This document shows positions 1,462 to 12,187 of a stretch of 12,187 nt of DNA, piece by piece. Under the pieces are notes generated by a model. It was not told where the DNA came from, searched no databases, and saw nothing but the letters and a program-made list of their open reading frames with translations. Both the position numbers and the translations under genes were made by a program. How positions within the stretch are numbered: the stretch's first letter is position 1; each line of letters starts with the position of its first letter. This DNA is from a virus (lineage: Duplodnaviria > Heunggongvirae > Uroviricota > Caudoviricetes), in IMG/VR virus record IMGVR_UViG_2713896785_000025; one strand, 5' to 3'.

Positions 1462-2062
1462 ATATGTCCTTTTATCACCACAGCAAGGCAACCCATTGAT
1501 TTAATTAAACAACACACACTGCAAAAAGTGCTAAAAACAGCAAATTGACTACACCATTAACTACACCGTTCGGTGCACTGTATGAAACAACGTGGAACAA
1601 ATAGACACAAGAAATATACAGGCGGGTAATCTTTCCAGGGGGAAGCGCACCAATTCATGAGGGGCGTTAATGTCGATATGGGGATCCCCATAACGGGGCT
1701 ACCGGATTTTTTTTCCGGTTAACTGTTAATCAGGCTGGTGGGTTTTACCTGTTCGGTAGGTGTTATGATTATCGTAATACCTTTCCCCCAGTGGGGTAAA
1801 AGCTCCAACCGTAACGATGTTCGTTGTGGTTGCCTTGATGGTCTGCGTGGTCATTATGACCATTCAGAATATGAAGGGTGACGCTTCCGACTTCCTCAAA
1901 TTGAGGTTTCCGAAAATATCAGCGGGTTAGCGATTAATCTGACCATTAATTAAACTACGAAAATTTCGTAGTTTGTGAATATATTCCGGCCTTCTGGTTA
2001 ACAGTCCTCAGATGTGAGGGATGTAGCCAGCGCAATTTTGCGTTATCGGGAATATCAGCAAG

Positions 2063-2344
2063 TTACCGCCGCAGCCGTTCCGGCTTCTTCCAGTGGTACG
2101 TTATTTTTTCTTTCTCCCGATACAGTTCAACGCGGCGATTGTAGGCCAGCATTTCAAGAACGCGGTTCCGTATGTTGCGCATATCAACGCCATTAAGTTC
2201 TATACCATCACGGCGCATCACTTCCGCTACAACACGCACATAATTTTCAGCGGTCACGCTGTCCGGCTGTGTGGCCTGTTCGTCATGCTGCTGGCTGATT
2301 CCGGCGACGCGGCGGATTAATCCCAGTAGTTCGGCTTCTGTCAT
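2063..2344 (-). CDS. Hypothetical protein (93 aa), last gene of island, just beyond cos
   Basis: ORF with ATG at 2342-2344 (rc) preceded by G-rich SD (GGGGG, 4 nt spacer). No recognisable motif. Confidence 0.55.
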   Translation of the reverse strand: MTEAELLGLIRRVAGISQQHDEQATQPDSVTAENYVRVVAEVMRRDGIELNGVDMRNIRNRVLEMLAYNRRVELYREKEKITYHWKKPERLRR

Positions 2345-2376
2345 TGTGCCCCCATCGCTCTGATAGTCTGGTGTCG

Positions 2377-2572
2377 TCGGGTCCTTCCTGGAATTATGGT
2401 CCGTTACGGGGCGGCGACCTCGCGGTTTTTATCTGTTTATGAGAATTTTCCGGCAAAAGTCAGATCCGATCTTCTTCTCTGTAACAGACTGTTTAACAAC
2501 GAAAATATTAAAAAAAGAAAGGATCTGACACGAGGCATTTTAGCCAGAAAATGCCATTATCAGATCCTTTCT
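2377..2572 (+). other. Lambda-type cos site (cos1): cosQ-like flank, cosN GGGCGGCGACCT at 2409-2420, cosB-like R elements at 2460-2479, 2516-2528 (inverted), 2560-2572
   Basis: 12-nt overhang sequence identical to lambda cosN as recalled; flanks GTTACG / CGCGG..TTTATGA.AATTTTCCGG resemble the lambda left end; three repeats of TCAGATCC(G/T)(A/T)TCT in R3/R2(inverted)/R1 layout with hairpin 2534-2555 between R2 and R1. Confidence 0.8.
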
Positions 2573-2599
2573 CATTTTTGTTCAATAATTGCGCGTCTG

Positions 2600-3142
2600 T
2601 TACTCGCCTTTCTTCTGTAGCAACTTTTCCGGTACGTTTCCGGTTGTTTCTTTCAAGTAATCAGCCAGTATCTGTGGGAGGTTGTCGGCAACTCTGGCAC
2701 TGGCATTACAGGCTTTAACCACTTCCCTTTTAAGCCTGTCCAGCATGGCGGGGGGAATCTGTGGGAAGCTCCTTTGCATAGTAAGCGGGAGGATGTCCAT
2801 GATTGATGAAATCTGACTCGCCAGCTTTGAAAGCGCGTACAGGCAAAACTCAGTATCAATCACGTCACCGCGATCGCGATCGTTTTTAAGTTCCTGCGCC
2901 TCTGCCTGTGCTGTCAGTAATCTGATCCTGACTCGTAAAAGTTCATCATCGTCAATCTCGCCTTTGTCGTTTATAAGCTGGCTAATTGCATTGTTAACCC
3001 TATTTTCTATCACGCTGGCAACATCATAAAACGCCTCACGGCCTTTACGCTCAACGGGAGTTACTCCCCACTTGTCGAACGCTGTCGCACTTACACGGCA
3101 GCTTTTCGCCATGTTTTTTTTGTTCATCAGATGAGATTTCAT
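2600..3142 (-). CDS. Terminase small subunit, lambda Nu1-like (180 aa)
   Basis: Blocks shared with lambda Nu1 as recalled: NKK near N-terminus, LT(A/R)AQA(E/D)AQELKN.RD, (E/A)FC..(A/V)LS, ILPL(T/S)(M/V)QR.FP, LKR(E/D)(V/I)(V/I)KA. SD-like GGTG before ATG 3140-3142. Confidence 0.85.
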   Translation of the reverse strand: MKSHLMNKKNMAKSCRVSATAFDKWGVTPVERKGREAFYDVASVIENRVNNAISQLINDKGEIDDDELLRVRIRLLTAQAEAQELKNDRDRGDVIDTEFCLYALSKLASQISSIMDILPLTMQRSFPQIPPAMLDRLKREVVKACNASARVADNLPQILADYLKETTGNVPEKLLQKKGE

Positions 3143-3250
3143 TAATACACCAACTTAATTACTGCTTCAGGTTGGTGTATTGCTTGCATCTTTCCCTTTT
3201 CATTCATAAAGATAGATCAAACAACAAAACCACCACCACCCCCCTGAAAA

Positions 3251-3319
3251 GGCTCATAAATAGCGAAAATCCGCGAGGTCTCCGCCCCGTAACAGGTCCA
3301 TATGCCGGAAAGGACCCGC
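3251..3319 (-). other. Second lambda-type cos (cos2) in minus orientation: cosQ-like flank, cosN-like GGGCGGAGACCT (rc of 3276-3287, one mismatch), proximal cosB-like sequence, about 135 bp upstream of terS start
   Basis: Minus strand reads GCGGGTCCTTTCCGGCATATGGACCTGTTACG GGGCGGAGACCT CGCGGATTTTCGCTATTTATGA, closely matching the lambda right-end/left-end junction as recalled. Confidence 0.7.
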
Positions 3320-3341
3320 AAAAAAGCCGGATTTCTCCGGC
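3320..3341 (-). terminator. Intrinsic terminator (copy 1 of a thrice-repeated motif)
   Basis: Minus-strand RNA: hairpin GCCGGAGAAAUCCGGC followed by U6; 7 nt downstream of stop of gene 3348-3761. Confidence 0.6.
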
Positions 3342-3347
3342 CTTGTC

Positions 3348-3761
3348 TCAGATGGTTTTCAGTATGCGATCGATGTCGCCGTCATCGCCCGGGTTTCTGC
3401 CATCGTATGCCATGCCAGCTGATACGGCTTGTGGGCTGTGCATGTCCATAAAGTTTTCAAAGGCTGCGGTAAGCTCTGGTGCAACCTTCGGGCGTTCCTG
3501 CTCTATGGTCATGTTCAGGATGTTTTTAGCCGTATCAACATCAATACAAGGCACGTTTGCCATTGCACGTAACAGCGGCTGATAGTCGTCAGATTCATGA
3601 AGCGCCATAATCGCATCAGCGCGCGGCTTGTCCTTCTCTTCCAGGCTGTTAAGTTGATATACGGCCTCGTAGGTTGATAAACCTCTGTCAGCCATTGCCC
3701 GCGCTTCGGCTTTAAATTTACTCGCCAGCGGTAGCGTCATGATACTTTCATTCGTTGCCAT
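3348..3761 (-). CDS. Hypothetical protein (137 aa), between decoration gene and terS
   Basis: ORF with SD-like AGGGGGA upstream of ATG; 12-nt gap after the upstream gene stop; no recognisable motif. Confidence 0.65.
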   Translation of the reverse strand: MATNESIMTLPLASKFKAEARAMADRGLSTYEAVYQLNSLEEKDKPRADAIMALHESDDYQPLLRAMANVPCIDVDTAKNILNMTIEQERPKVAPELTAAFENFMDMHSPQAVSAGMAYDGRNPGDDGDIDRILKTI

Positions 3762-3773
3762 CGTTCCCCCTGC

Positions 3774-4109
3774 TTATCGCGCCAGCGGCTGAACGGATAC
3801 GCCAGAACCCGCAAAGGCGGCGCATTTTTTCGCGTCGGTGTCGGCGCTCTCAGGCCAGTTAACGGCGGCAATATTGAATATCCCCGTCTTGTAGCACTGT
3901 GCTGATTTCTGCGTCGACGTGTCCACGGGGTACGAGGTCAGATAAACAGCCTTGCCAGATTCCTGACCATCCCACGGCTTAAACTCGCCATTTTCCGCCA
4001 GCATCAGCGGGGTAAATTCCTGAATAACGCCAGCATCAGCAGCAAAATGTACCAGCGTCGTGGATACCTGCTGACTACCTGCAAATAACTCAATGTATGG
4101 AGTGTCCAT
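3774..4109 (-). CDS. Head decoration protein, lambda gpD-like (111 aa)
   Basis: Motifs shared with lambda D as recalled: TPLML, WDG, YK(T/S)G(I/T)F, WPE, KK..AFAG; same length class; SD GGGGGGA in 12-nt spacer after MCP stop. Confidence 0.85.
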   Translation of the reverse strand: MDTPYIELFAGSQQVSTTLVHFAADAGVIQEFTPLMLAENGEFKPWDGQESGKAVYLTSYPVDTSTQKSAQCYKTGIFNIAAVNWPESADTDAKKCAAFAGSGVSVQPLAR

Positions 4110-4121
4110 AGAATCCCCCCG

Positions 4122-5177
4122 TTAACCAATTTTGACGGTAACAAATTTGCGAATATCTGCCGGTACCGGCTGCGGTGCGCTGTGCGTCTGCACGTACTCA
4201 ATCGCCGGATCGCCGTCCTCAATCCAGTTTTTCGGGTAAAACATGTTTTGCGTTGCGCCCGTTCTGACCGCTTCCTGATCCATAATCGCACCATAGGCCA
4301 CCAGCCCTTTATTGTTGGTGTTACCCAGGACCAGCAAATCAGGCTCAAGGAAATATTTTTCGGTGCCGTCGCTGTCAGTGTATTTGCCGGAATAGACGAC
4401 AAGGGCAATATCGCCCAGATAGCCTTTAAAGCTCACCACTTCACCCAGGTTTTTACAGGCCAGTTCTGCGGCGGATTCTGAACCACGGGAAAGGTCGTAC
4501 AGTTCGCGGAATTTTTTAAAGCTGCGTAACGTGCGCCATACTTCAGCGCCCATAATCATGACGTTTGCGGGGCAATTGCCCTGATCAGCATAAAGCTCGA
4601 TGTCATAGATTGGATCGTGTGTTTCTTTATCCAGCTCAGACCATTTTTTACCGTCAGCCTGTTCTATGATATTGCTTTCCGGGATCTTCCAGTCGATTTC
4701 ATAGCGTTCTATGCCTTCGCCCTCAATGAGGTTTTTTCCGGTCGTTACCGCATTCACCGCCAGCCATTCCACGCGTGCCTTAATGGCGTTTATCTGGCGG
4801 CGCATGTTGCCAGTAATCAGGCGCATACGGCGATAGGTAGGATCGTTAAGCTGTGCCGGATCTTCTCCAGCCATGCGCATGATGGTTTTTGTTGGATCGA
4901 TTTCGTGTTTGGGTTTCATGTAGCCTGGTTTAATCGTGCTGGTTTCGTACCCTTTATCGCGCTGGACCTGACTACCCACCATAGGCGAACAGAACGCTGA
5001 CATCGTAACCTCTTCAATGTCCAGGGTGTCCAGCATGATGTTCTGGGTGTTGAAGGTCGCCACGTTCGGGAAAAACAGCGTGGTAAACAGCGGACTGAAT
5101 TTAAATTCTGCAATATCCCCGCGATTCAGGTACGCGAAAAGCTGGTTAGTGTTAAGTGCCGTTGCTTTGCCTGCCAT
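4122..5177 (-). CDS. Major capsid protein, lambda gpE-like (351 aa)
   Basis: Motifs shared with lambda E as recalled: (K/E)FKF.PLF..LFF, PGY(V/M)KPKHE, EDP..L.DP.YRR.R, YSG.Y, YPKNW...GDPA, SAP. Strong SD GGAGGTGA; start overlaps upstream stop (TAATG). Confidence 0.9.
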   Translation of the reverse strand: MAGKATALNTNQLFAYLNRGDIAEFKFSPLFTTLFFPNVATFNTQNIMLDTLDIEEVTMSAFCSPMVGSQVQRDKGYETSTIKPGYMKPKHEIDPTKTIMRMAGEDPAQLNDPTYRRMRLITGNMRRQINAIKARVEWLAVNAVTTGKNLIEGEGIERYEIDWKIPESNIIEQADGKKWSELDKETHDPIYDIELYADQGNCPANVMIMGAEVWRTLRSFKKFRELYDLSRGSESAAELACKNLGEVVSFKGYLGDIALVVYSGKYTDSDGTEKYFLEPDLLVLGNTNNKGLVAYGAIMDQEAVRTGATQNMFYPKNWIEDGDPAIEYVQTHSAPQPVPADIRKFVTVKIG

Positions 5178-5586: not shown

Positions 5587-5592
5587 GGGCGC

Positions 5593-5614
5593 AAAAAAGC
5601 CGGATTGCTCCGGC
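5593..5614 (-). terminator. Intrinsic terminator (copy 2 of repeated motif)
   Basis: Minus-strand RNA: hairpin GCCGGAGCAAUCCGGC followed by U6; about 20 nt downstream of gene 5635-5859. Confidence 0.6.
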
Positions 5615-5634
5615 TATGTGTGCTGTGTGCTGGC

Positions 5635-5859: not shown

Positions 5860-5955
5860 TGTTTTTTTCCTCTGTTGTGTCTGTTTGTTTCAGATAGTAA
5901 CTATGCCTGACCGTGACGAAAACCCGGTAATGCGCCATACCGTTTCAACTGGTGC

Positions 5956-5978
5956 AAAAAAAGCCGGATTTCTCCGGC
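5956..5978 (-). terminator. Intrinsic terminator (copy 3 of repeated motif)
   Basis: Minus-strand RNA: hairpin GCCGGAGAAAUCCGGC followed by U7; 8 nt downstream of stop of gene 5986-6258. Confidence 0.6.
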
Positions 5979-5985
5979 TGTTTGA

Positions 5986-6258
5986 TTAGCTGTCCTGGTA
6001 ATTGCGCCATATTTCATCACCAGCACCATCTATACCCATTTCGGCATAAGTGCGATCGACTGCCTTTTTCAGGTCTCCGAAATTATCCGGCGGCTCCGGT
6101 GCCCTCTGTGCCTTCCTTGAACATTCCAGCCGTCGCATCGTGATGTGATGCCGTTCCTTGTCTGTCTCCACCAGCTGCATGACTTCACCCCATCGCGCCG
6201 CCGCCCTCCGGTAAAAGCCTTTCGCCTCCAGTTCCTCCGCTATGCGGTCATGTACCAT
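5986..6258 (-). CDS. PerC-family transcriptional regulator-like protein (about 90 aa; start refined from the 130-aa track ORF)
   Basis: N-terminal motif D.IAEELEAKGFYRRAAARW typical of the PerC/Pch family as recalled; internal ATG at 6256-6258 has SD GAGGGGG 5 nt upstream, and the SSB stop codon lies within that SD. Confidence 0.6.
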   Translation of the reverse strand: MVHDRIAEELEAKGFYRRAAARWGEVMQLVETDKERHHITMRRLECSRKAQRAPEPPDNFGDLKKAVDRTYAEMGIDGAGDEIWRNYQDS

Positions 6259-6268
6259 CGTCACCCCC

Positions 6269-6679
6269 TCAGAACGAAATATCATCACCGTAAGGGTCAT
6301 CGCCTCCCGCTGGTGGCTGATTACCCTGTGTGCCTGTGGTTTTGCGTCTGTTCCCGCCTGGACGTGCCGCGCGGGCACTGATTACGCTGTCTGCGATAAC
6401 CTGCCAGCCCTGCCGCGTTTCTCCGTTCTGTCCGGTCCACTGGCTTACCTGCATCGTGCCGGATACGCTGGCAACATCGCCTTTTTGATGTTTAGCCAGG
6501 AAGTCGGCCTGTTTGCCAAATGCGATGACCGATAACCATAACGTCGCCTGTCCGTCCTGTGCCTGGCTGCATGGCAAAGATACCGCCATACGCGCCAGCG
6601 TCATCGGTGTGCCCTTGCTGGTCTGTTTTACCTGCGGGTCGTCCACCAGCCGCCCGTAAGCGGCTATCTGTGCCGTCAT
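6269..6679 (-). CDS. Single-stranded DNA-binding protein homolog (136 aa)
   Basis: OB-fold blocks align with E. coli SSB as recalled (GRL..DP, FGK.A, W..Q.G..R); Gly/Gln-rich linker; acidic C-terminal tail GDDISF (host tail is DDDIPF). SD GGAGAGGTGG; ATGA overlap with upstream gene. Confidence 0.8.
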   Translation of the reverse strand: MTAQIAAYGRLVDDPQVKQTSKGTPMTLARMAVSLPCSQAQDGQATLWLSVIAFGKQADFLAKHQKGDVASVSGTMQVSQWTGQNGETRQGWQVIADSVISARAARPGGNRRKTTGTQGNQPPAGGDDPYGDDISF

Positions 6680-6939: not shown

Positions 6940-7130
6940 CTCACTTTTTCGCCTCACTTTTTCAAGCGTCTCACTTCGTCGCAGTTGGGATTTTCGGTTT
7001 TTCTATGTGTGTGTTTCATAAGTATTTTTTTACCCCTCACTTTTGAGGATGTATACAGGTCGAAAAGTGAGGGAGAGCGGGCTAATTTTGGCCCTCTTTC
7101 TATCCCCCTCGCTTTTGCTCCTCACTTTTA
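6940..7130. repeat. Iteron array / candidate origin of replication (CTCACTTTT repeats, one inverted) with AT-rich tract
   Basis: CTCAC(T)4 at 6940-6949, 6953-6962, 7036-7045, 7121-7130; variants at 6970-6978 and 7108-7117; inverted copy AAAAGTGAG at 7063-7071; AT-rich stretch 7001-7034; immediately downstream of replicase gene. Confidence 0.6.
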
Positions 7131-8528
7131 TAGCGGCGCTACATCATCCCCATCGATACGAATAACCCCATCTTTTTCCAGCTTGTACAGCCAGCGCCGG
7201 AAGTTTTTCATTTCATACCCCAGCTTTTTCATGTCATCACGTAACAGCGGGATCGTGCACTTGTCGCCGTTCTGTGTGCGTGAACGGATGCACCCCCATA
7301 GCGCGGTATGGTTTTCCGTCTTGTTCCCTGCCTCCTCGATGCGCTCCAGTTCAACAGGAGGGCGCGGATCATCCACCACCACCAGCGACGTGATTAATTC
7401 ACCGTCAGCGTCGGTAAAAAGCTCCACCACGCGTAAGTCATATGCGGCTTCTTTGAGTTCCTCCGCGTCCTTCATTTTGGTGCATGAGATAACCAGCGCT
7501 TCGCTTCCTGCGTCCTCCCTGCGTATCCGGTATTCAGCATCCAGCGAAGCACGAAATGCACTGGAACCGCGCGCGCCTTTCGTCTCATCCTTGCCGGAAT
7601 GGTGAACCACCAGCACCGTGGCCCCTGTGCGTCGTTTCAGTTCGTCACAACCACGGATAAACGCCCCCATATCACGGGAATCATTTTCATCATTCCCACC
7701 AAAGCAACGCGCCAGCGTATCCAGAATAATCATGCGTACAGGTTTACCCGTTTCCCGCTCCACCTGACGGGCAGCGATAACCATTTCATCAACATCAAGC
7801 GGGGCAGCCGGAAAGATGGGGCGGTTTACCAGATACAGATTTTTCACCTGCTCATCGTGCACAACCTCCCAGGCTTTTACACGACGCGGAACACCTATAC
7901 CGCCTTCACCAACCACATAGAGAACCGCACCATGTGCAACCCTGCGGCCTCCCCACTGGCGACCAGTGGCAACATGGCACGCCCACGATCCGGCAAGGAA
8001 TGATTTATAGGACCCGCTAGCCCCGTATATGCTGCATAGCGATACCGCCGGAATAATCCCCTTAACCACGTAATCCAGTTGCGTGTCGTATCCGGTAGAT
8101 CCAACGCTCATCGGTAGCGTGGTTTTTCGCTGGTGGTTTTTTTCTTCCGCCGGCTCTTTCCCGCGCACCCGTTCCAGGTATTCGCGCCAGTTCTCCCGCA
8201 TATGGCTGTGCATCCCTTCGGGGTAATAATTCGCATCAGTTACACCCGCCGCCGCCAGCTTGTGCGCAATGGCATTAATATTTGATGGCCTGATGTGGCC
8301 TGCCTTGTACAGCCGGACACAATAGCGCCCCTCGTCGATGATTCTCAGGTCTGCCAGTTCATCCAGTTGATCATCAGCCAGCACAACGGGAGGCACATTA
8401 TCGCCAGCCAGTCGCCCGTCCTGTTCCTGCCACTGTTTCGCATGTGCCCAGGCATCACTACCCGCAAAAATAATGACTTCGGTCATCTTGTCGTAAGGCT
8501 GTTTTTTTAAGTTCGGTGCGCTTTTCAT
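7128..8528 (-). CDS. Replication protein: RecA-like AAA_25 ATPase/helicase-type replicase with N-terminal possible Toprim/primase-like domain (466 aa)
   Basis: Walker A GASGSYKSFLA...HVATG, Walker B-like MIILDTLARCF, HHSGKDETKG motif; SD AGGGG; start overlaps upstream stop (ATGA). Confidence 0.85.
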   Translation of the reverse strand: MKSAPNLKKQPYDKMTEVIIFAGSDAWAHAKQWQEQDGRLAGDNVPPVVLADDQLDELADLRIIDEGRYCVRLYKAGHIRPSNINAIAHKLAAAGVTDANYYPEGMHSHMRENWREYLERVRGKEPAEEKNHQRKTTLPMSVGSTGYDTQLDYVVKGIIPAVSLCSIYGASGSYKSFLAGSWACHVATGRQWGGRRVAHGAVLYVVGEGGIGVPRRVKAWEVVHDEQVKNLYLVNRPIFPAAPLDVDEMVIAARQVERETGKPVRMIILDTLARCFGGNDENDSRDMGAFIRGCDELKRRTGATVLVVHHSGKDETKGARGSSAFRASLDAEYRIRREDAGSEALVISCTKMKDAEELKEAAYDLRVVELFTDADGELITSLVVVDDPRPPVELERIEEAGNKTENHTALWGCIRSRTQNGDKCTIPLLRDDMKKLGYEMKNFRRWLYKLEKDGVIRIDGDDVAPL

Positions 8529-8871
8529 TTCTTGCCCCTGAATCCGTTAATCATGGTTTTCAGCTTCTGGATGTTTGCCCGTGCCCTGGCGTTGCTGGTG
8601 GGCACGTTATGCGGCGCGGTCTGTACCAGAGAAAAATCACGCCGGAACTGATAAACAGGCATCACGCAATCATATTCGTAACCTTCACGNNNNNNNNNNN
8701 NNNNNNNNNNNNNNNNNNNNNNNNNNNNNNNNNNNNNNNNNNTGATTTTTGTTTGTCGCGTTCATTGTCGCCAAGTGTTTCAAGCCATATGCGCAATATT
8801 TCCAGCATGTTTTCACTGTGAGAAAGTGCAAGAAATGCGCGGTCTATTGTTTGGTGGTAAATATCACGCAT
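8525..8871 (-). CDS. Hypothetical protein interrupted by assembly gap (N-terminal 43 codons 8743-8871; C-terminal 54 codons 8528-8689 plus stop 8525-8527)
   Basis: Both fragments are open right up to the gap edges; ATG 8869-8871 with SD GAGGA; C-terminal frame ends with TGA overlapping replicase ATG. The stated gap length (53) is not a multiple of 3, so continuity is unproven. Confidence 0.45.
8690..8742. other. Assembly gap (53 N)
   Basis: Run of n characters in the sequence. Confidence 1.
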
Positions 8872-9328
8872 GGCTTACATCCTCAGGAAATTTTCTTCTA
8901 TAACGCGCCTCTGCCACATATTCCGCATAATCGGCGGCGATATTCAGTACATCAAGCCCCGTTGATTTATATTCTCTCGTGGAAAGTAAGAAAAAAGCCG
9001 CTCTAATAAGTTCTGGCATTGACGAAAGCGCATCAGCCGCATCATCAGGAACGCCGGAAAATTCCTGTTTCAGGGAATTAAAACGATCATCACGCATAAC
9101 CCCCCCATTTTCACAATCAGCAATCAGGATGGCTTTGGCCTCATTCAGCGCCATATCCGCACTAAGTTGCATAACCGCCAGCGAATGAGGAACGAAAGCC
9201 CCGGCATATTCTGTTTCACTGGTGGCGTGCTTATGCGCCATGTCTGCGATAACAGAAATATCAATCAGCGCGTGCATTAGCGTTATGATGGCTTCGGCGG
9301 CTGCGTCCGGACGGATGTTATTGCACAT
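8864..9328 (-). CDS. Hypothetical protein (154 aa), first clearly supported gene of leftward early operon
   Basis: Near-consensus SD AGGAGGTG 5-6 nt upstream of ATG 9326-9328; stop overlaps next start by 8 nt. Confidence 0.65.
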   Translation of the reverse strand: MCNNIRPDAAAEAIITLMHALIDISVIADMAHKHATSETEYAGAFVPHSLAVMQLSADMALNEAKAILIADCENGGVMRDDRFNSLKQEFSGVPDDAADALSSMPELIRAAFFLLSTREYKSTGLDVLNIAADYAEYVAEARYRRKFPEDVSHA

Positions 9329-9524
9329 GGCACACCTCCTGACGAATACGGGCAGCGAATACCATCACGCAGCCAGCCGGAGATTGCTGGCGTGCTTCCT
9401 GTTCGCTGGTGGCCTCAATGGTAATCACGCGCGGTTGTGCCGTGCTCAGGGCGATAAAACGCCAGATGTATTTATTCAGGTTGTGCGAGTCCCGCCCTTG
9501 CGGGTGTGTGGTATGATTTCTCAT
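9318..9524 (-). CDS. Possible small protein (68 aa); C-terminal part of the 342-aa track ORF
   Basis: ATG at 9522-9524 (rc) with GAGGT 4 nt upstream; otherwise unsupported, and it contains the SD of the next gene. Confidence 0.25.
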   Translation of the reverse strand: MRNHTTHPQGRDSHNLNKYIWRFIALSTAQPRVITIEATSEQEARQQSPAGCVMVFAARIRQEVCHVQ

Positions 9525-9620
9525 AGCTACCTCGATACTTTCGCTATCGTTGGTGGTTAGAAGCCCGGTTAGTGTTAGCGCACTGCCGGGTTTCGTCGTT
9601 TCTGCACCTTGCGCCAACAA

Positions 9621-9674
9621 GGTGTTGAACACCAATTTAAACCCAGGTGTTAAACACGTCAAGTGTTGAACACT
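9621..9674. promoter_or_regulatory. Three palindromic operator-like sites GTGTT-N-AACAC with candidate rightward promoter
   Basis: GGTGTTGAACACC 9621-9633, GGTGTTAAACACG 9646-9658, AGTGTTGAACACT 9662-9674 (centres 25 and 16 bp apart). -35 TTGAAC 9666-9671 inside site 3, 17-nt spacer, -10 CATACT 9689-9694, upstream of ORF 9724. Confidence 0.6.
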
Positions 9675-9723
9675 TATTTTTTTTCCTGCATACTGCATTT
9701 GTTTTTTATGAGGGGTACACCAC

Positions 9724-9903
9724 ATGGCGACAAAAGCAGTAAACGCAAAATCACAAACCGTTGCGGCAAGGGTTCCGCATGAAGTTATGAACAATGTTGA
9801 GGCGGTAAAAATGCCTGGCGAAAGTACGGGGCAATTTGTTACTGCAGCATTAAAACGAGAAGTTGAATATCGCCAGCGGCGCAAGGCCAAAGAACCAGAG
9901 TAA
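9724..9903 (+). CDS. Small DNA-binding protein, ribbon-helix-helix-like (59 aa)
   Basis: Not in ORF track (below size cut-off). ATG 9724 with SD GAGGGG 8 nt upstream; pattern beta-strand TVAARVP, helix, loop GES, helix resembles Arc/CopG-type RHH; basic C-terminus. Confidence 0.55.
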   Translation: MATKAVNAKSQTVAARVPHEVMNNVEAVKMPGESTGQFVTAALKREVEYRQRRKAKEPE

Positions 9904-9960
9904 TCACCATCAGCGCCGTGGTGTAAGGTATTACGGCGCATTGCTATGCAGGACAACACA

Positions 9961-10134
9961 ATGACCGATAAAGAATTGACCAAAACATTATCACCGGCAC
10001 GGAAAAGACGGCGCAGAAAGATAGAGCATGAATCAGAAAGATTCGCGCCATGTGCTTTTGCCCTTGAGCAATTCCTTAAAGAGTACAGGGAAAAGCGCTC
10101 ATTGCAGGTATGGCAACGAACTGAACCAGACTGA
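9961..10134 (+). CDS. Small basic hypothetical protein (57 aa; track ORF starts at 9946)
   Basis: ATG 9961 has SD AGGA with 7-nt spacer; Arg/Lys-rich segment RKRRRRK; followed by terminator. Confidence 0.45.
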   Translation: MTDKELTKTLSPARKRRRRKIEHESERFAPCAFALEQFLKEYREKRSLQVWQRTEPD

Positions 10135-10228
10135 TAGCATTGCCCACCAGCCTGATAGCGACTATCATTGCCGTTCTTATGTTTGGGATCACACACACAA
10201 ACGGCGCAGCGGGTTATCTGTTCAGAAA

Positions 10229-10257
10229 GGCGGCTCCATTTCGGGGCCGCTTTTTTT
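10229..10257 (+). terminator. Intrinsic terminator for rightward transcript
   Basis: Stem GCGGCTCC/GGGGCCGC (one G-U pair), loop ATTTC, then T7 on + strand. Confidence 0.65.
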
Positions 10258-10403
10258 ATGTCTGAAAAACCCCAATTTTGTTGTTTTTCAGTTTCACCAG
10301 GGCGAACGAATCCCCGCCCACGTTCTGGCGTATATTCAATCTTCATGGTTATAGCTCTGTGTTCAGATGATTGATGTGTGGCGGCTGCGTGCCGCCAGCG
10401 TGA

Positions 10404-10592
10404 TTAATGAACTGCCTTGCAGCTATCCTTCCAGGCCAGAACCTCGGATAAAGACCAGCCAACGGAACGACCGCCAAGTTTACGACGTGATGGGAATTGT
10501 CCGGCCTTTTCCAGGCGGTAGCGACACGTACGGCTAAGGCCGGTTAGTTTTTCGCATTCTTTTTCACGTATAAACCGATCAGTGCTTAACAC
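10404..10592 (-). CDS. AlpA-family transcriptional regulator (about 62 aa from GTG; track gives 89 aa from TTG at 10673)
   Basis: HTH block LTGLSRTCRYRLEKAGQFP..RKLGGRSVGWSLSEV.AW typical of AlpA/Phage_AlpA as recalled; GTG at 10590-10592 (rc) preceded by SD AGGGGGG with 5-nt spacer; no internal ATG. Confidence 0.8.
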   Translation of the reverse strand: MLSTDRFIREKECEKLTGLSRTCRYRLEKAGQFPSRRKLGGRSVGWSLSEVLAWKDSCKAVH

Positions 10593-10865
10593 TATTGCCC
10601 CCCTTTCGTTTCTTAAAGAGTCATCAGGTGTCTTATTGTGTCGTATTGTTCCCGCTAGAGTGATGAATGGCAAATATTGAGGATGTATGATTTACAGAAA
10701 ATGAAACAGTAAGAATAAAATCTTTTAAATTCATGTTAATACAAAGGCATAAAATATTGTTTCATGCCTTTTTTCTCACGCGTTAAAGCGTTATTCGCTA
10801 ATGTATAAAAAAACAGTCACACAAATAAAATCAGTCACTTATAAACCTGTGTACTTTTTCGCCTC

Positions 10866-10957: not shown

Positions 10958-12187
10958 TTATTTTCTTCTGGCTGCTGGTAGTGCGGTTACGTTTTCATGT
11001 GTTCCCGCCAGTATCCCTAACCGCTCCATCCACATATCCAGCGCATTGCGTTTAGCATCCAGATAACGGGAATGATTATAAACTCGCTGCATTCCTGGCA
11101 TCTGGTGGCCTGTAAGCTGCTCCACGACGTGAGGATCCACGCCTAAATCGCTCAGCATCGTTGTAAAGGTGCGCCGGATGTCATGTAGTGACCAGTGAGG
11201 GTGATTTAGCCTCCTGTGCGCTAATCTGCCGTACTGCGACACGCTTGTTTCCTGTTTCACTTCCCCCAGCAATAAGCCCGTGTGCCTGTTCTGCTCCACC
11301 AGCTGCGTGACGAACGGCAGTATTGCTTCCGGTATGGGCCGGAATATTGCCACCTTCGTTTTGCTGTGTTCTTTCGGCACGGTCCAGAGCATTTCGGTAA
11401 AATCCCACTCGCTGATCTCCGATAACCTCAGTTCTACCGTCCGGCATCCGAACACAATCAGGAGGCGGATTAACGCGATGTAGTAGGGGGAGAATATTTT
11501 TTTGTCCAGTGCCTGCAATAATTCGCCCAGTTCTTTGGTGCTTAAGACACGCTCGCTTATATCCGGTTTTTTCCCAACGTCCGCCACACTCATATCATCA
11601 AGAACGTTGCTGATTGCATAGCGCCGCCTCCGGCAGAACTTAAGCGCCTGTTTGCACGTCTGTAGCAAGAATCCGGCAGTAACAGGCGTTCGCTTTGCCA
11701 CCTGGTCAAAACAGGCCAGCCAGTGCCGTAGCTCGCATTTATCCAGCGGCATAGCACCAATGTGCTGTATTACGTGATTATTAAGGCGCTTTTTCAGGGC
11801 GGCATAATCCACGCGGTTTTCCTTTGCGTACGACTCAAGCCAGTAGGTGAGCGCATCGCCAACCGTTACCGGCTTTAACGCTTCCTGTACGGTGTAATTA
11901 AGCTCATGACGTGGATTTTTCCCCTCTGCCAGCCATGCGCGACACTGGGCGGCTTTTTCCCTGGCTGATTTCAGGCTCAGATCAGGATAATTTCCCAGCT
12001 TAATGCGTTCCGGTGGTGCCCCCCTTCCCGTTCCGGCCCTGTAAGTGAAATACCAGGTTAAAAGGCCACTGGTTGAATGCCTGACGCTCAGGTTTCCACC
12101 GTCATTAAGAAAGGCTGTTTTTTGGGCGGGTGTGCCGTTGATTTTCCTCAGCTGTGTATCGCTCAGTTTGTTAAGTGCTCTGCTCAT
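10958..12187 (-). CDS. Tyrosine recombinase / integrase, P4-like family (409 aa; start codon at the window edge, so the 5' end could be truncated)
   Basis: N-terminal arm-binding-type region; catalytic-domain motifs GCRTVELRL, HDIRRTFTT, LTGHQ...VYNHSRY (R, H-x-x-R, Y). Confidence 0.92.
   Translation of the reverse strand: MSRALNKLSDTQLRKINGTPAQKTAFLNDGGNLSVRHSTSGLLTWYFTYRAGTGRGAPPERIKLGNYPDLSLKSAREKAAQCRAWLAEGKNPRHELNYTVQEALKPVTVGDALTYWLESYAKENRVDYAALKKRLNNHVIQHIGAMPLDKCELRHWLACFDQVAKRTPVTAGFLLQTCKQALKFCRRRRYAISNVLDDMSVADVGKKPDISERVLSTKELGELLQALDKKIFSPYYIALIRLLIVFGCRTVELRLSEISEWDFTEMLWTVPKEHSKTKVAIFRPIPEAILPFVTQLVEQNRHTGLLLGEVKQETSVSQYGRLAHRRLNHPHWSLHDIRRTFTTMLSDLGVDPHVVEQLTGHQMPGMQRVYNHSRYLDAKRNALDMWMERLGILAGTHENVTALPAARRK

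Follow-up and report, generated by a model that had tools for sequence, protein, structure and literature searches.

The packaging module of a satellite island beside phoQ

The stretch of DNA analysed here, 12,187 nucleotides of the Caudoviricetes record IMGVR_UViG_2713896785_000025 from IMG/VR (the whole stretch is referred to as the window), has phoQ at its left end (1-1461); the remainder is a satellite island. The island ends are imperfect 75-nt direct repeats (att) 10,858 bp apart, and the segment with which genomes were searched, 2350-3345, is 100% identical to E. coli 2013C-3264, where it lies between phoQ and roxA. Our subject is the packaging module of this 10.9-kb element: terS, a gene for the small subunit of a terminase, set between two lambda-type cohesive-end (cos) sites on opposite strands. 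The element is a phage-inducible chromosomal island (PICI) of the EcCICFT073 / O-island-51 family. It has the integrase, AlpA, primase/replicase, att repeats and length (about 10-15 kb) of that family, is without tail or lysis genes, and carries a packaging-specificity gene flanked by two cos sites. The dual-cos identification is secure.

The central gene, terS (2600-3142, minus strand), encodes a small terminase of the Nu1 / N15 gp1 type with 180 amino acids, in which homology to other TerS proteins starts at Met6 (ATG at 3127). The protein matches Pfam Phage_Nu1 (1.5e-22) and phrog_57 (1e-50, over residues 1-174). Residues 6-166 align with residues 3-180 of lambda Nu1 at 36% identity, reaching the penultimate residue of Nu1, and the best phage match is gp1 of N15, at 44% identity. 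The homology is full-length and takes in the C-terminal region by which Nu1 binds the large terminase subunit (TerL) in lambda (restated in PMC9026076). At the other end the N-terminus, SATAFDKWGVTPVERKGREAFYDV, is close to that of N15 gp1, SVQAFDKWGVQPVEKRGREVFFDV, and the two proteins have a recognition-helix motif in common; it is unlike the N-termini of TerS proteins of lambda, of the 21/phi4 type, or of the type found in a lambdoid prophage of strain 2017C-4173W12 (L014). No match at E <= 0.01 was returned by a sequence search of solved structures, and a protein search of genome contigs of other species gave no confirmed relative; the survey of dual-cos islands reported below covers E. 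coli.

The core of this arrangement has been known since 2018-2019 for EcCICFT073; the present island is a variant of it that encodes a true TerS and whose second cos is phage-like throughout. The two loci have the same phoQ junction and the same gene order (gpE-like, gpD-like, 137-amino-acid protein, central gene, 93-amino-acid protein), and in both, two inverted lambda-type cos sites surround a packaging-specificity gene, with cosQ flanks that are near-identical on both sides. In CFT073 (L002) rppA is flanked by two perfect cosN sequences, one on each strand, at 2559-2570 (+) and 3298-3309 (-). The differences concern what the sites enclose. EcCICFT073 has an Rpp adaptor, RppA, of 144 amino acids, which has only an N-terminal winged helix-turn-helix (wHTH) in common with Nu1 (phrog_57 covers its residues 7-47) and shows no BLASTP similarity to the island TerS; both cosB regions differ as well. 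The possibility that the central gene of the window is itself an Rpp was considered and rejected: at 180 amino acids it exceeds the length of about 140-155 usual for Rpp proteins, which combine a wHTH with an Rpp dimerisation domain and lack the Nu1 C-terminal region that the window protein keeps, BLASTP to RppA gives E = 3.1, phrog_57 is covered over residues 1-174 rather than 7-47, and there is no PDB match despite the published structure of RppC.

Comparison with the published supplement sequences fixes the correspondence of the sites. Published cos1 lies upstream of rppA and corresponds to the minus-strand site of the window; published cos2 is the convergent site and corresponds to the plus-strand site. 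(A preliminary description of this DNA numbered the two in the reverse order.) We refer to the former as the private and to the latter as the accessory site. In EcCICFT073 each cos, when cloned, allows lambda and phi80 to transduce the plasmid that carries it; deletion of cos1 lowers transfer by both phages, deletion of cos2 does not, and deletion of both abolishes it; RppA acts via the cosB of cos1 (Fillol-Salom et al. 2018, PMC6092414; 2019, PMC6739421). Why some PICIs have two cos sites was left open by the authors of 2019 (PMC6739421).

Two lambda-type cos sites in inverted orientation

A repeat search of the window returned inverted arms at 2378-2453 and 3243-3318, each of 76 nt, 78% complementary and 789 nt apart. 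The 12-mer GGGCGGCGACCT, allowing one mismatch, occurs in exactly two places in the window: at 2409-2420 on the plus strand, where the match is perfect, and at 3276-3287 on the minus strand, as GGGCGGAGACCT. By chance 0.07 such matches are expected, and two matches were found in none of 200 shuffled sequences. In the plus-strand site, the minus-strand site and lambda alike, the cosQ core GGGTCCT stands exactly 30 nt upstream of cosN.

Alignment in register with lambda gives, for the plus-strand site, 20/32 identities at positions -32 to -1, 12/12 in cosN and 28/35 at +13 to +47; for the minus-strand site the figures are 23/32, 11/12 and 28/35. (Positions are numbered in bp along each cos; the term proximal cosB is used for bp 13-47, which separate cosN from R3.) Past +48 the similarity of the sites to each other and to lambda falls to background (about 32%), so that it extends well past the cosN 12-mer yet ends where cosB specificity starts. 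The longest identical run shared by the arms of this window is 12 nt. Taken together, the cosN shuffles, the number of R boxes expected by chance (below) and the in-register alignment with lambda lead us to reject chance similarity.

The preliminary description, made from the sequence alone, had already read this locus as two inverted lambda-type cos sites bracketing terS, and the elements it named are borne out: a perfect cosN and a cosN-like sequence at the places just given, cosQ-like flanks in both, imperfect inverted repeats of about 75 bp some 800 bp apart, and about 135 bp between the upstream site and the start of terS (about 134 nt separate cosN from the ATG at 3142). The resemblance to lambda is not confined to the 12-mer but spans the flanks to +47. 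Its account of some 35 bp of proximal cosB in each site holds as far as it goes; the plus-strand site has more than this, namely a complete R3/R2/R1 cosB. That the two sites are nicked in the manner of lambda cos and give rise to packaged DNA ends is suggested by analogy, from the plasmid transduction and deletion experiments in the homologous EcCICFT073.

The private site resembles the cos of N15

The core of the private site is the right repeat arm (3243-3318, minus strand), in the position of published EcCICFT073 cos1. On the same strand lie the cosQ core (3311-3317), the cosN variant GGGCGGAGACCT, in which C7 is changed to A (3276-3287), proximal cosB (3241-3275) and a candidate single R3, GGTGGTGGTGGTTTTGTT, at bp 48-65 (3223-3240). 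The first base of cosN lies 146 nt before the first ATG of the terS open reading frame (3142) and 161 nt before the ATG at 3127. The 188-nt region with the C7A cosN recurs in about 100 genomes at 99% identity or more, at least seven of them exact; in other islands the private cosN slot holds the lambda sequence or different variants.

Both the architecture and the position of the candidate R3 recall N15. R3 of N15 is placed at bp 48-60, and a single R3 has been proposed at bp 48-65 in PICI cos sites (PMC9026076). Here a GGT-repeat motif occupies bp 48-60, the place of N15 R3: bp 48-65 reads GGTGGTGGTGGTTTTGTT compared with GAGGTTGTTGTTTAATCA in N15, and bp 48-58 reads GGTGGTGGTGG compared with GAGGTTGTTGTTT. 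Together with the rest of the 130-nt private cosB, bp 48-65 is kept in six TerS-type islands (83-100% identical overall), among which the run TGGTGGTGGTTTTGTT is invariant. The minus-strand site (3223-3317) has the components of an N15-type cos: cosQ, cosN (with one mismatch), the proximal segment, a single candidate R3 and terS on the same strand. As in N15, cosB is short, with one (here candidate) R3 and without repeated R boxes (Feiss et al. 2015, as given in PMC9026076), the CAGATCC R-box pattern being confined to the plus-strand cosB, and gp1 of N15 is the phage protein that the island TerS matches best. The differences are a cosN that reads GGGCGGCGTCCG in N15, an ATG at bp 146 or 161, where N15 has it at 89, and R3 sequences that are related, not identical. 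On these sequence grounds the minus-strand site resembles an N15-type cos, with a short cosB and one candidate R3, and the island TerS, whose DNA-binding domain is similar to the one in N15 gp1, may bind this R3.

The private cosB contains a single local repeat, the inverted pair AATACACCAAC / GTTGGTGTATT, a short way upstream of the terS start codon. It was considered as a TerS operator and set aside: the repeat is not conserved, its right arm differing in three related islands (L008, L011 and L012). The R3 position also differs between the two kinds of island. TerS-type islands have GGTGGTGGTGG at bp 48-58 (window 3230-3240, minus strand); cos1 of Rpp-type islands has CACCACCACCAC at bp 54-65 (L002, 2612-2623, plus strand), which is the reverse complement of the TerS-type motif displaced by about 6 bp. 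The reversal may reflect opposite orientations of the wHTH in a TerS homodimer and an Rpp-TerS heterodimer, or may be coincidence.

The accessory site is a copy of a lambdoid prophage cos

The left repeat arm (2378-2453, plus strand) carries the accessory core from cosQ to proximal cosB, and its position and flank are those of EcCICFT073 cos2. The cosQ core is at 2379-2385, cosN (GGGCGGCGACCT, the same as in lambda) at 2409-2420 and proximal cosB at 2421-2455. Beyond this the site continues into three R-type boxes. The pattern CAGATCCKWTCT occurs at 2461 (+), 2516 (-) and 2561 (+), three occurrences where 0.14 are expected. The R3-type box, CAGATCCGATCT (2461-2472), is in register with lambda R3 and is kept in the prophage cos of L014; the R2-type box, CAGATCCTTTCT (2516-2527), is inverted and 1 nt out of register with lambda R2; and the R1-type box, also CAGATCCTTTCT (2561-2572), is 2 nt out of register with lambda R1. 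The +/-/+ order is that of R3/R2/R1 in lambda, and the offsets are 0, 1 and 2 nt.

The site (2379-2572) thus has the cosQ, cosN and three-R-box cosB of a lambda-type cos, with cosQ at -30, an identical cosN, 28 of 35 proximal positions and R boxes within 2 nt of their places in lambda. It departs from lambda in its R box, CAGATCC instead of CGTTTCC, in that no integration host factor (IHF) consensus was found, and in what lies downstream: rather than a terS on the same strand, the stop-codon end of the convergent terS abuts R1. The whole site is collinear with the lambdoid prophage cos of 2017C-4173W12, in which terS and terL come after R1, and with the cosB of phage SerU-LTIIb. Matches of 60-80% to the accessory cosB were found in a further 219 genomes; those sampled (77.8-79.3% identity) fall in intergenic DNA without annotation, and inspection of one (L014) showed a prophage cos. 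By its sequence the plus-strand site reproduces in full the cos of one class of lambdoid prophages, without terS behind it. Neither CFT073 site is reported, in the searched text of PMC6092414 and PMC6739421, to have a phage cosB.

The accessory site varies among related islands

The class of the convergent site can be read from bp 48-65. In the window it is AAAGTCAGATCCGATCTT, closest to prophage L014 (AAAATCAGATCCGTTCTT); in L007 it is AAAAGCATGTCGGTACTT, closest to the phi4/21 type (AAAATCGTGTCGGTACTT); in L019, an Rpp-type island at phoQ, it is GAGGTTGTTGTTTAATTG, which agrees with N15 R3 at 16/18 positions. Accessory copies of CAGATCC type, 21 type and N15 type have thus been seen. Two further islands (L009 and L016) encode a phage-like TerS of 194 amino acids, with a 21-type cosB upstream of the gene and a CAGATCC-type site downstream. 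These combinations argue that the upstream site moves together with the specificity gene, and that the convergent site is a copy of a helper-class cos which is optional and can be exchanged.

The island L019 (NZ_CP125889.1; accessory cos at 3150-3230) suggests by its N15-like R3 that N15-like phages are among the helpers exploited by the family. In some relatives the cosN 12-mer itself has been replaced, with cosQ and proximal cosB kept: GGGCGTCAGGCG stands in its place in L010 (about 1560-1575, minus strand) and GGGCGGCAGACG in the minus-strand site of L016, and yet another cosN sequence is found in the plus-strand site of L016 and in phage SerU-LTIIb (L004, about 1450-1480). With N15, L010 and L016 as natural variants, it follows from these replacements that the cohesive-end sequence varies within the island family.

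The cos-to-cos cassette occurs in both orientations

The segment between the two cosN sequences (2421-3275: accessory cosB, terS and private cosB) is found in either orientation among E. coli genomes. We searched 5,426 complete genomes with a 620-nt query describing the reversed junction, composed of the flank at the 93-amino-acid gene, the plus-strand cosQ, cosN, the private cosB and the 5′ part of terS. Five genomes carry this TerS-type junction over its full length, at 90.6-91.8% identity; the native arrangement, scored as at least 80% of 2350-3345 in one place, is present in 479. In one of the reversed islands (L018) positions 2378-3318 of the window align backwards to 4059-3119 (91.4% over 943 nt), with both flanks forward. 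Another (L020) has a reversed cassette beside a right flank that matches the window at 99.66% identity over 2,047 nt. Its cassette is closer to the unreversed one of L007 (95.0% identity) than to the reversed one of L018 (90.5%), which argues for at least two separate inversion events, a conclusion tempered by the mosaic nature of these islands.

The same polymorphism exists in the RppA-type module. The native CFT073 junction was found in 38 genomes and the reversed one in 15, where it is 100.0% identical over 620 nt; these 15 may be one clone. In L021, an island at phoQ, the 813-nt rppA cassette is reversed (99.4% identity) between forward flanks of 99.1% and 97.1% identity. One strain, EC21Z-144 (NZ_CP101222.1), has two islands of the family, a single-cos TerS-type island (L008) at 4.22 Mb and a reversed RppA-type island at 1.96 Mb.

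Wherever the cassette is reversed, the outer flank keeps its cosQ-side signature and the cosB-side one follows the cassette. This partition places the exchange within the identical 23-bp core GTTACG-cosN-CGCGG. In islands in which both cosN are perfect the identical core between the arms is about 23 nt or more, compared with 12 nt in this window. Since each outer flank supplies cosQ and each inner end cosB, either orientation of the cassette leaves two complete, opposed cos sites. The breakpoints fit homologous recombination across the repeat and cleavage at both cos sites, followed by re-annealing of the flipped fragment, equally well. A third route, end-joining in the recipient of linear molecules packaged in opposite directions, was rejected: worked through on paper it yields dimers joined head to head and no clean flip.

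That the terS segment inverts, which the preliminary description had offered as one possible consequence of the paired sites, is seen directly in other genomes (L018 and L020, with the rppA counterpart in L021). The inversion is an addition to what is known of EcCICFT073 without a match in the searchable literature, a search of which yielded nothing relevant on inversion between cos sites or on cos sites paired in inverted orientation; neither 'inverted' nor 'orientation' appears as a word in the searched text of PMC6092414, PMC6739421 and the review of Murialdo and Feiss (2022; PMC9026076), and cos2 is not discussed in the searched text of the review.

A proposed division into satellite-specific and helper-type packaging signals

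The reading we favour, with a probability of about 0.62, is that the module combines a satellite-specific cos and a helper-type cos around a cassette that works in either orientation. The island TerS would bind the private site and recruit the large terminase of the helper through its retained Nu1-type C-terminal region, bypassing the helper TerS, as its full-length homology to Nu1 suggests; packaging from this site would run toward lower window coordinates. The accessory site would be used by the unmodified terminase of a helper with the matching cosB class, and packaging from it would run in the opposite direction. The cosQ elements of the outer flanks would serve in termination, the proximal segments and cosB of the inner ends in initiation, a geometry that explains why inversion is tolerated. 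The anatomy and homologies of the sites, the way in which the accessory site varies and the inversion polymorphism are matters of observation; the division into private and helper-type sites we infer from that anatomy, from co-variation across islands and from the genetics of EcCICFT073. In that island both sites function and the upstream one is the main one, and by analogy the same may hold here. That packaging might start in either direction, as the preliminary description proposed, likewise follows from the opposed geometry and from the action of both EcCICFT073 sites on plasmids.

Several observations weigh against this reading. The TerS-type island is known here from its sequence, and the experiments belong to EcCICFT073. 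The private cosN carries the C7A change, and the candidate R3 is identified by position and conservation. In neither cosB was an IHF consensus found: for I1 (WATCAANNNNTTR, up to one mismatch) there is no match in 2421-2600, which takes in the stretch between R3 and R2, although the same scan does find I1 in lambda; this is a weak test given that IHF sites are degenerate. The plus-strand site is absent from four islands (L008, L010, L011 and L012), some of them apparently intact. In EcCICFT073 deletion of cos2 raised lambda-mediated transfer (PMC6092414, PMC6739421), which means that an accessory site can cost the island when the helper does not match. Finally, the single CAGATCC-type cosB of the source genome is the island's own, and there is no sign of a resident prophage in the matching class.

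The last three of these observations, with the dispensability of cos2 in EcCICFT073, would also be expected if the plus-strand cos were a neutral remnant left by earlier recombination with helper phages and only the site upstream of terS mattered. We think this unlikely, though it retains a real chance of being right. All elements of the plus-strand site are intact and correctly spaced, from cosQ at -30 and the perfect cosN to three R boxes in register; at least three phage cosB classes occupy the same slot across islands, implying repeated acquisition or exchange, not decay; and in EcCICFT073 loss of cos1 merely lowers transfer whereas loss of both sites abolishes it, so that cos2 is used. 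The same experiments divide an earlier suggestion that one site is at work and the other is an ancestral remnant: in EcCICFT073 the upstream site is indeed required and the convergent one dispensable, but the latter is not dead.

A satellite-specific and a helper-type signal at the two sites would also be in place if the helper terminase itself inverted the cassette, an extension that we hold to be decidedly speculative. Terminase cutting at both opposed cosN would release a fragment with the same cosB-side 12-nt overhang at each end; the outer ends would bear the complementary cosQ-side overhang, and the fragment could re-anneal and be ligated either way round. The packaging nuclease would then do the work of a site-specific invertase, reversing the direction of satellite packaging, and the flip may be a side effect of terminase cutting that has not been reported before. 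If this is true, the private and helper-type signals would answer the question posed in 2019 of why some PICIs have two cos sites.

Inverted repeats and two observed orientations are what defines an invertible segment, as in the Gin/Hin/Cin systems and the fim switch, in which a short segment likewise lies between inverted repeats; the pair could on this basis be a programmed, frequently switching element that toggles terS expression or packaging direction. Both orientations do occur in at least three sequence backgrounds, and for the CFT073-type junction the split is 38 native to 15 reversed. We nevertheless consider a programmed switch very unlikely. No dedicated serine or tyrosine invertase lies beside the cassette, whose neighbours are the 93-amino-acid protein, terS and the 137-amino-acid protein; the only recombinase is the integrase, 8 kb away, and the repeats are cos sites. 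Inversion appears rare among isolates: 479 native TerS-type genomes stand against 5 reversed, the sampled near-identical relatives (at least 98.6% identity) each match as a single collinear piece, and the 15 reversed RppA-type genomes, with their identical junction, may be one clone.

Least probable of all is a decoy, replicated copies of the plus-strand cos binding helper TerS or terminase, or provoking unproductive cutting, to hinder helper packaging: a full helper-type R-box set without terS behind it would suit such a role, and satellites of the EcCICFT073 family do block helper packaging, but interference by EcCICFT073 maps to Rpp and not to cos2, and cutting would also break the island's own concatemer.

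With the private and helper-type division as the preferred account, the two-cos question gains a testable answer: one site would pair with the island's specificity protein and the other would copy the complete cos of a local lambdoid class. A cos-type satellite can, moreover, carry a full TerS in place of the Rpp adaptor, with which the helper TerS should be dispensable, a different route of hijacking. In staphylococcal pathogenicity islands (SaPIs) satellites similarly redirect helper packaging, by a TerS-SP of their own or by a helper cos (SaPIbov5), and SaPIbov4 is cited as also having two putative cos sites; the SaPIs differ in belonging to the staphylococcal HNH/cos or pac phage lineage, without sequence relationship. 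The two strategies, own TerS and helper cos, appear combined in one module here. The TerS-type module is widespread, its 479 genomes among 5,426 including O157:H7, and the family carries virulence regulators such as PerC; natural flipping of a cos-bounded cassette also bears on the engineering of PICI-based delivery vehicles.

Other features of the island

The genes named in this paragraph are all on the minus strand. The accessory cos adjoins the gene for the 93-amino-acid protein (2063-2344), which matches phrog_1561 (function not assigned; 2.7e-58). On the other side of terS lie the gene for the 137-amino-acid protein (inside 3348-5177), a lambda gpD-like decoration protein (3774-4109) and a lambda gpE-like major capsid protein (4122-5177). 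Further along are a PerC-family activator (5986-6378), SSB (6269-6679, Pfam), a replication gene encoding a RepA-like AAA_25 protein (7128-8528, Pfam), AlpA (10404-10673) and the integrase (10958-12187), the sole recombinase in the window. Four units of 10.86 kb make 43.4 kb, which is within the range that a lambda head takes.

The C-terminal part of the 137-amino-acid protein matches the C-terminal end of phrog_53 (6.7e-09), a head-maturation-protease family; this end we take to be the part that overlaps the Nu3 scaffold in lambda. EcCICFT073 also holds capsid-like, decoration-like and 137-amino-acid genes, and deletion of either its capsid-like or its decoration-like gene left interference unrelieved (PMC6092414). 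Islands of the O-island 51 family have been tied to regulation of the LEE (enterocyte effacement locus) type III secretion system (PMC6092414).

A hairpin followed by a T-run, AAAAAAGCCGGATTTCTCCGGC, occurs three times in the island (3317-3346, 5590-5619 and 5954-5983). On the minus strand it reads GCCGGAGAAATCCGGC and then TTTTTT, and one copy abuts the minus-strand cosQ, directly after the 137-amino-acid gene. It is terminator-like in appearance, yet a consensus terminator scan does not list it; the promoter and terminator scan of 2000-3800 gave nothing beyond shuffle expectation, its sole terminator-like match being the cosN hairpin. Positions 8690-8742, about 160 nt past the 5′ end of the replication gene, are 53 masked nucleotides (N) where the source genome has ordinary sequence. 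At 9318-10346 (minus strand) the longest open reading frame, of 342 amino acids, is without RefSeq annotation and is probably spurious: RefSeq places there an Icd-like protein, an opposite-strand gene of the YlcI/YnfO family and a truncated pseudogene.

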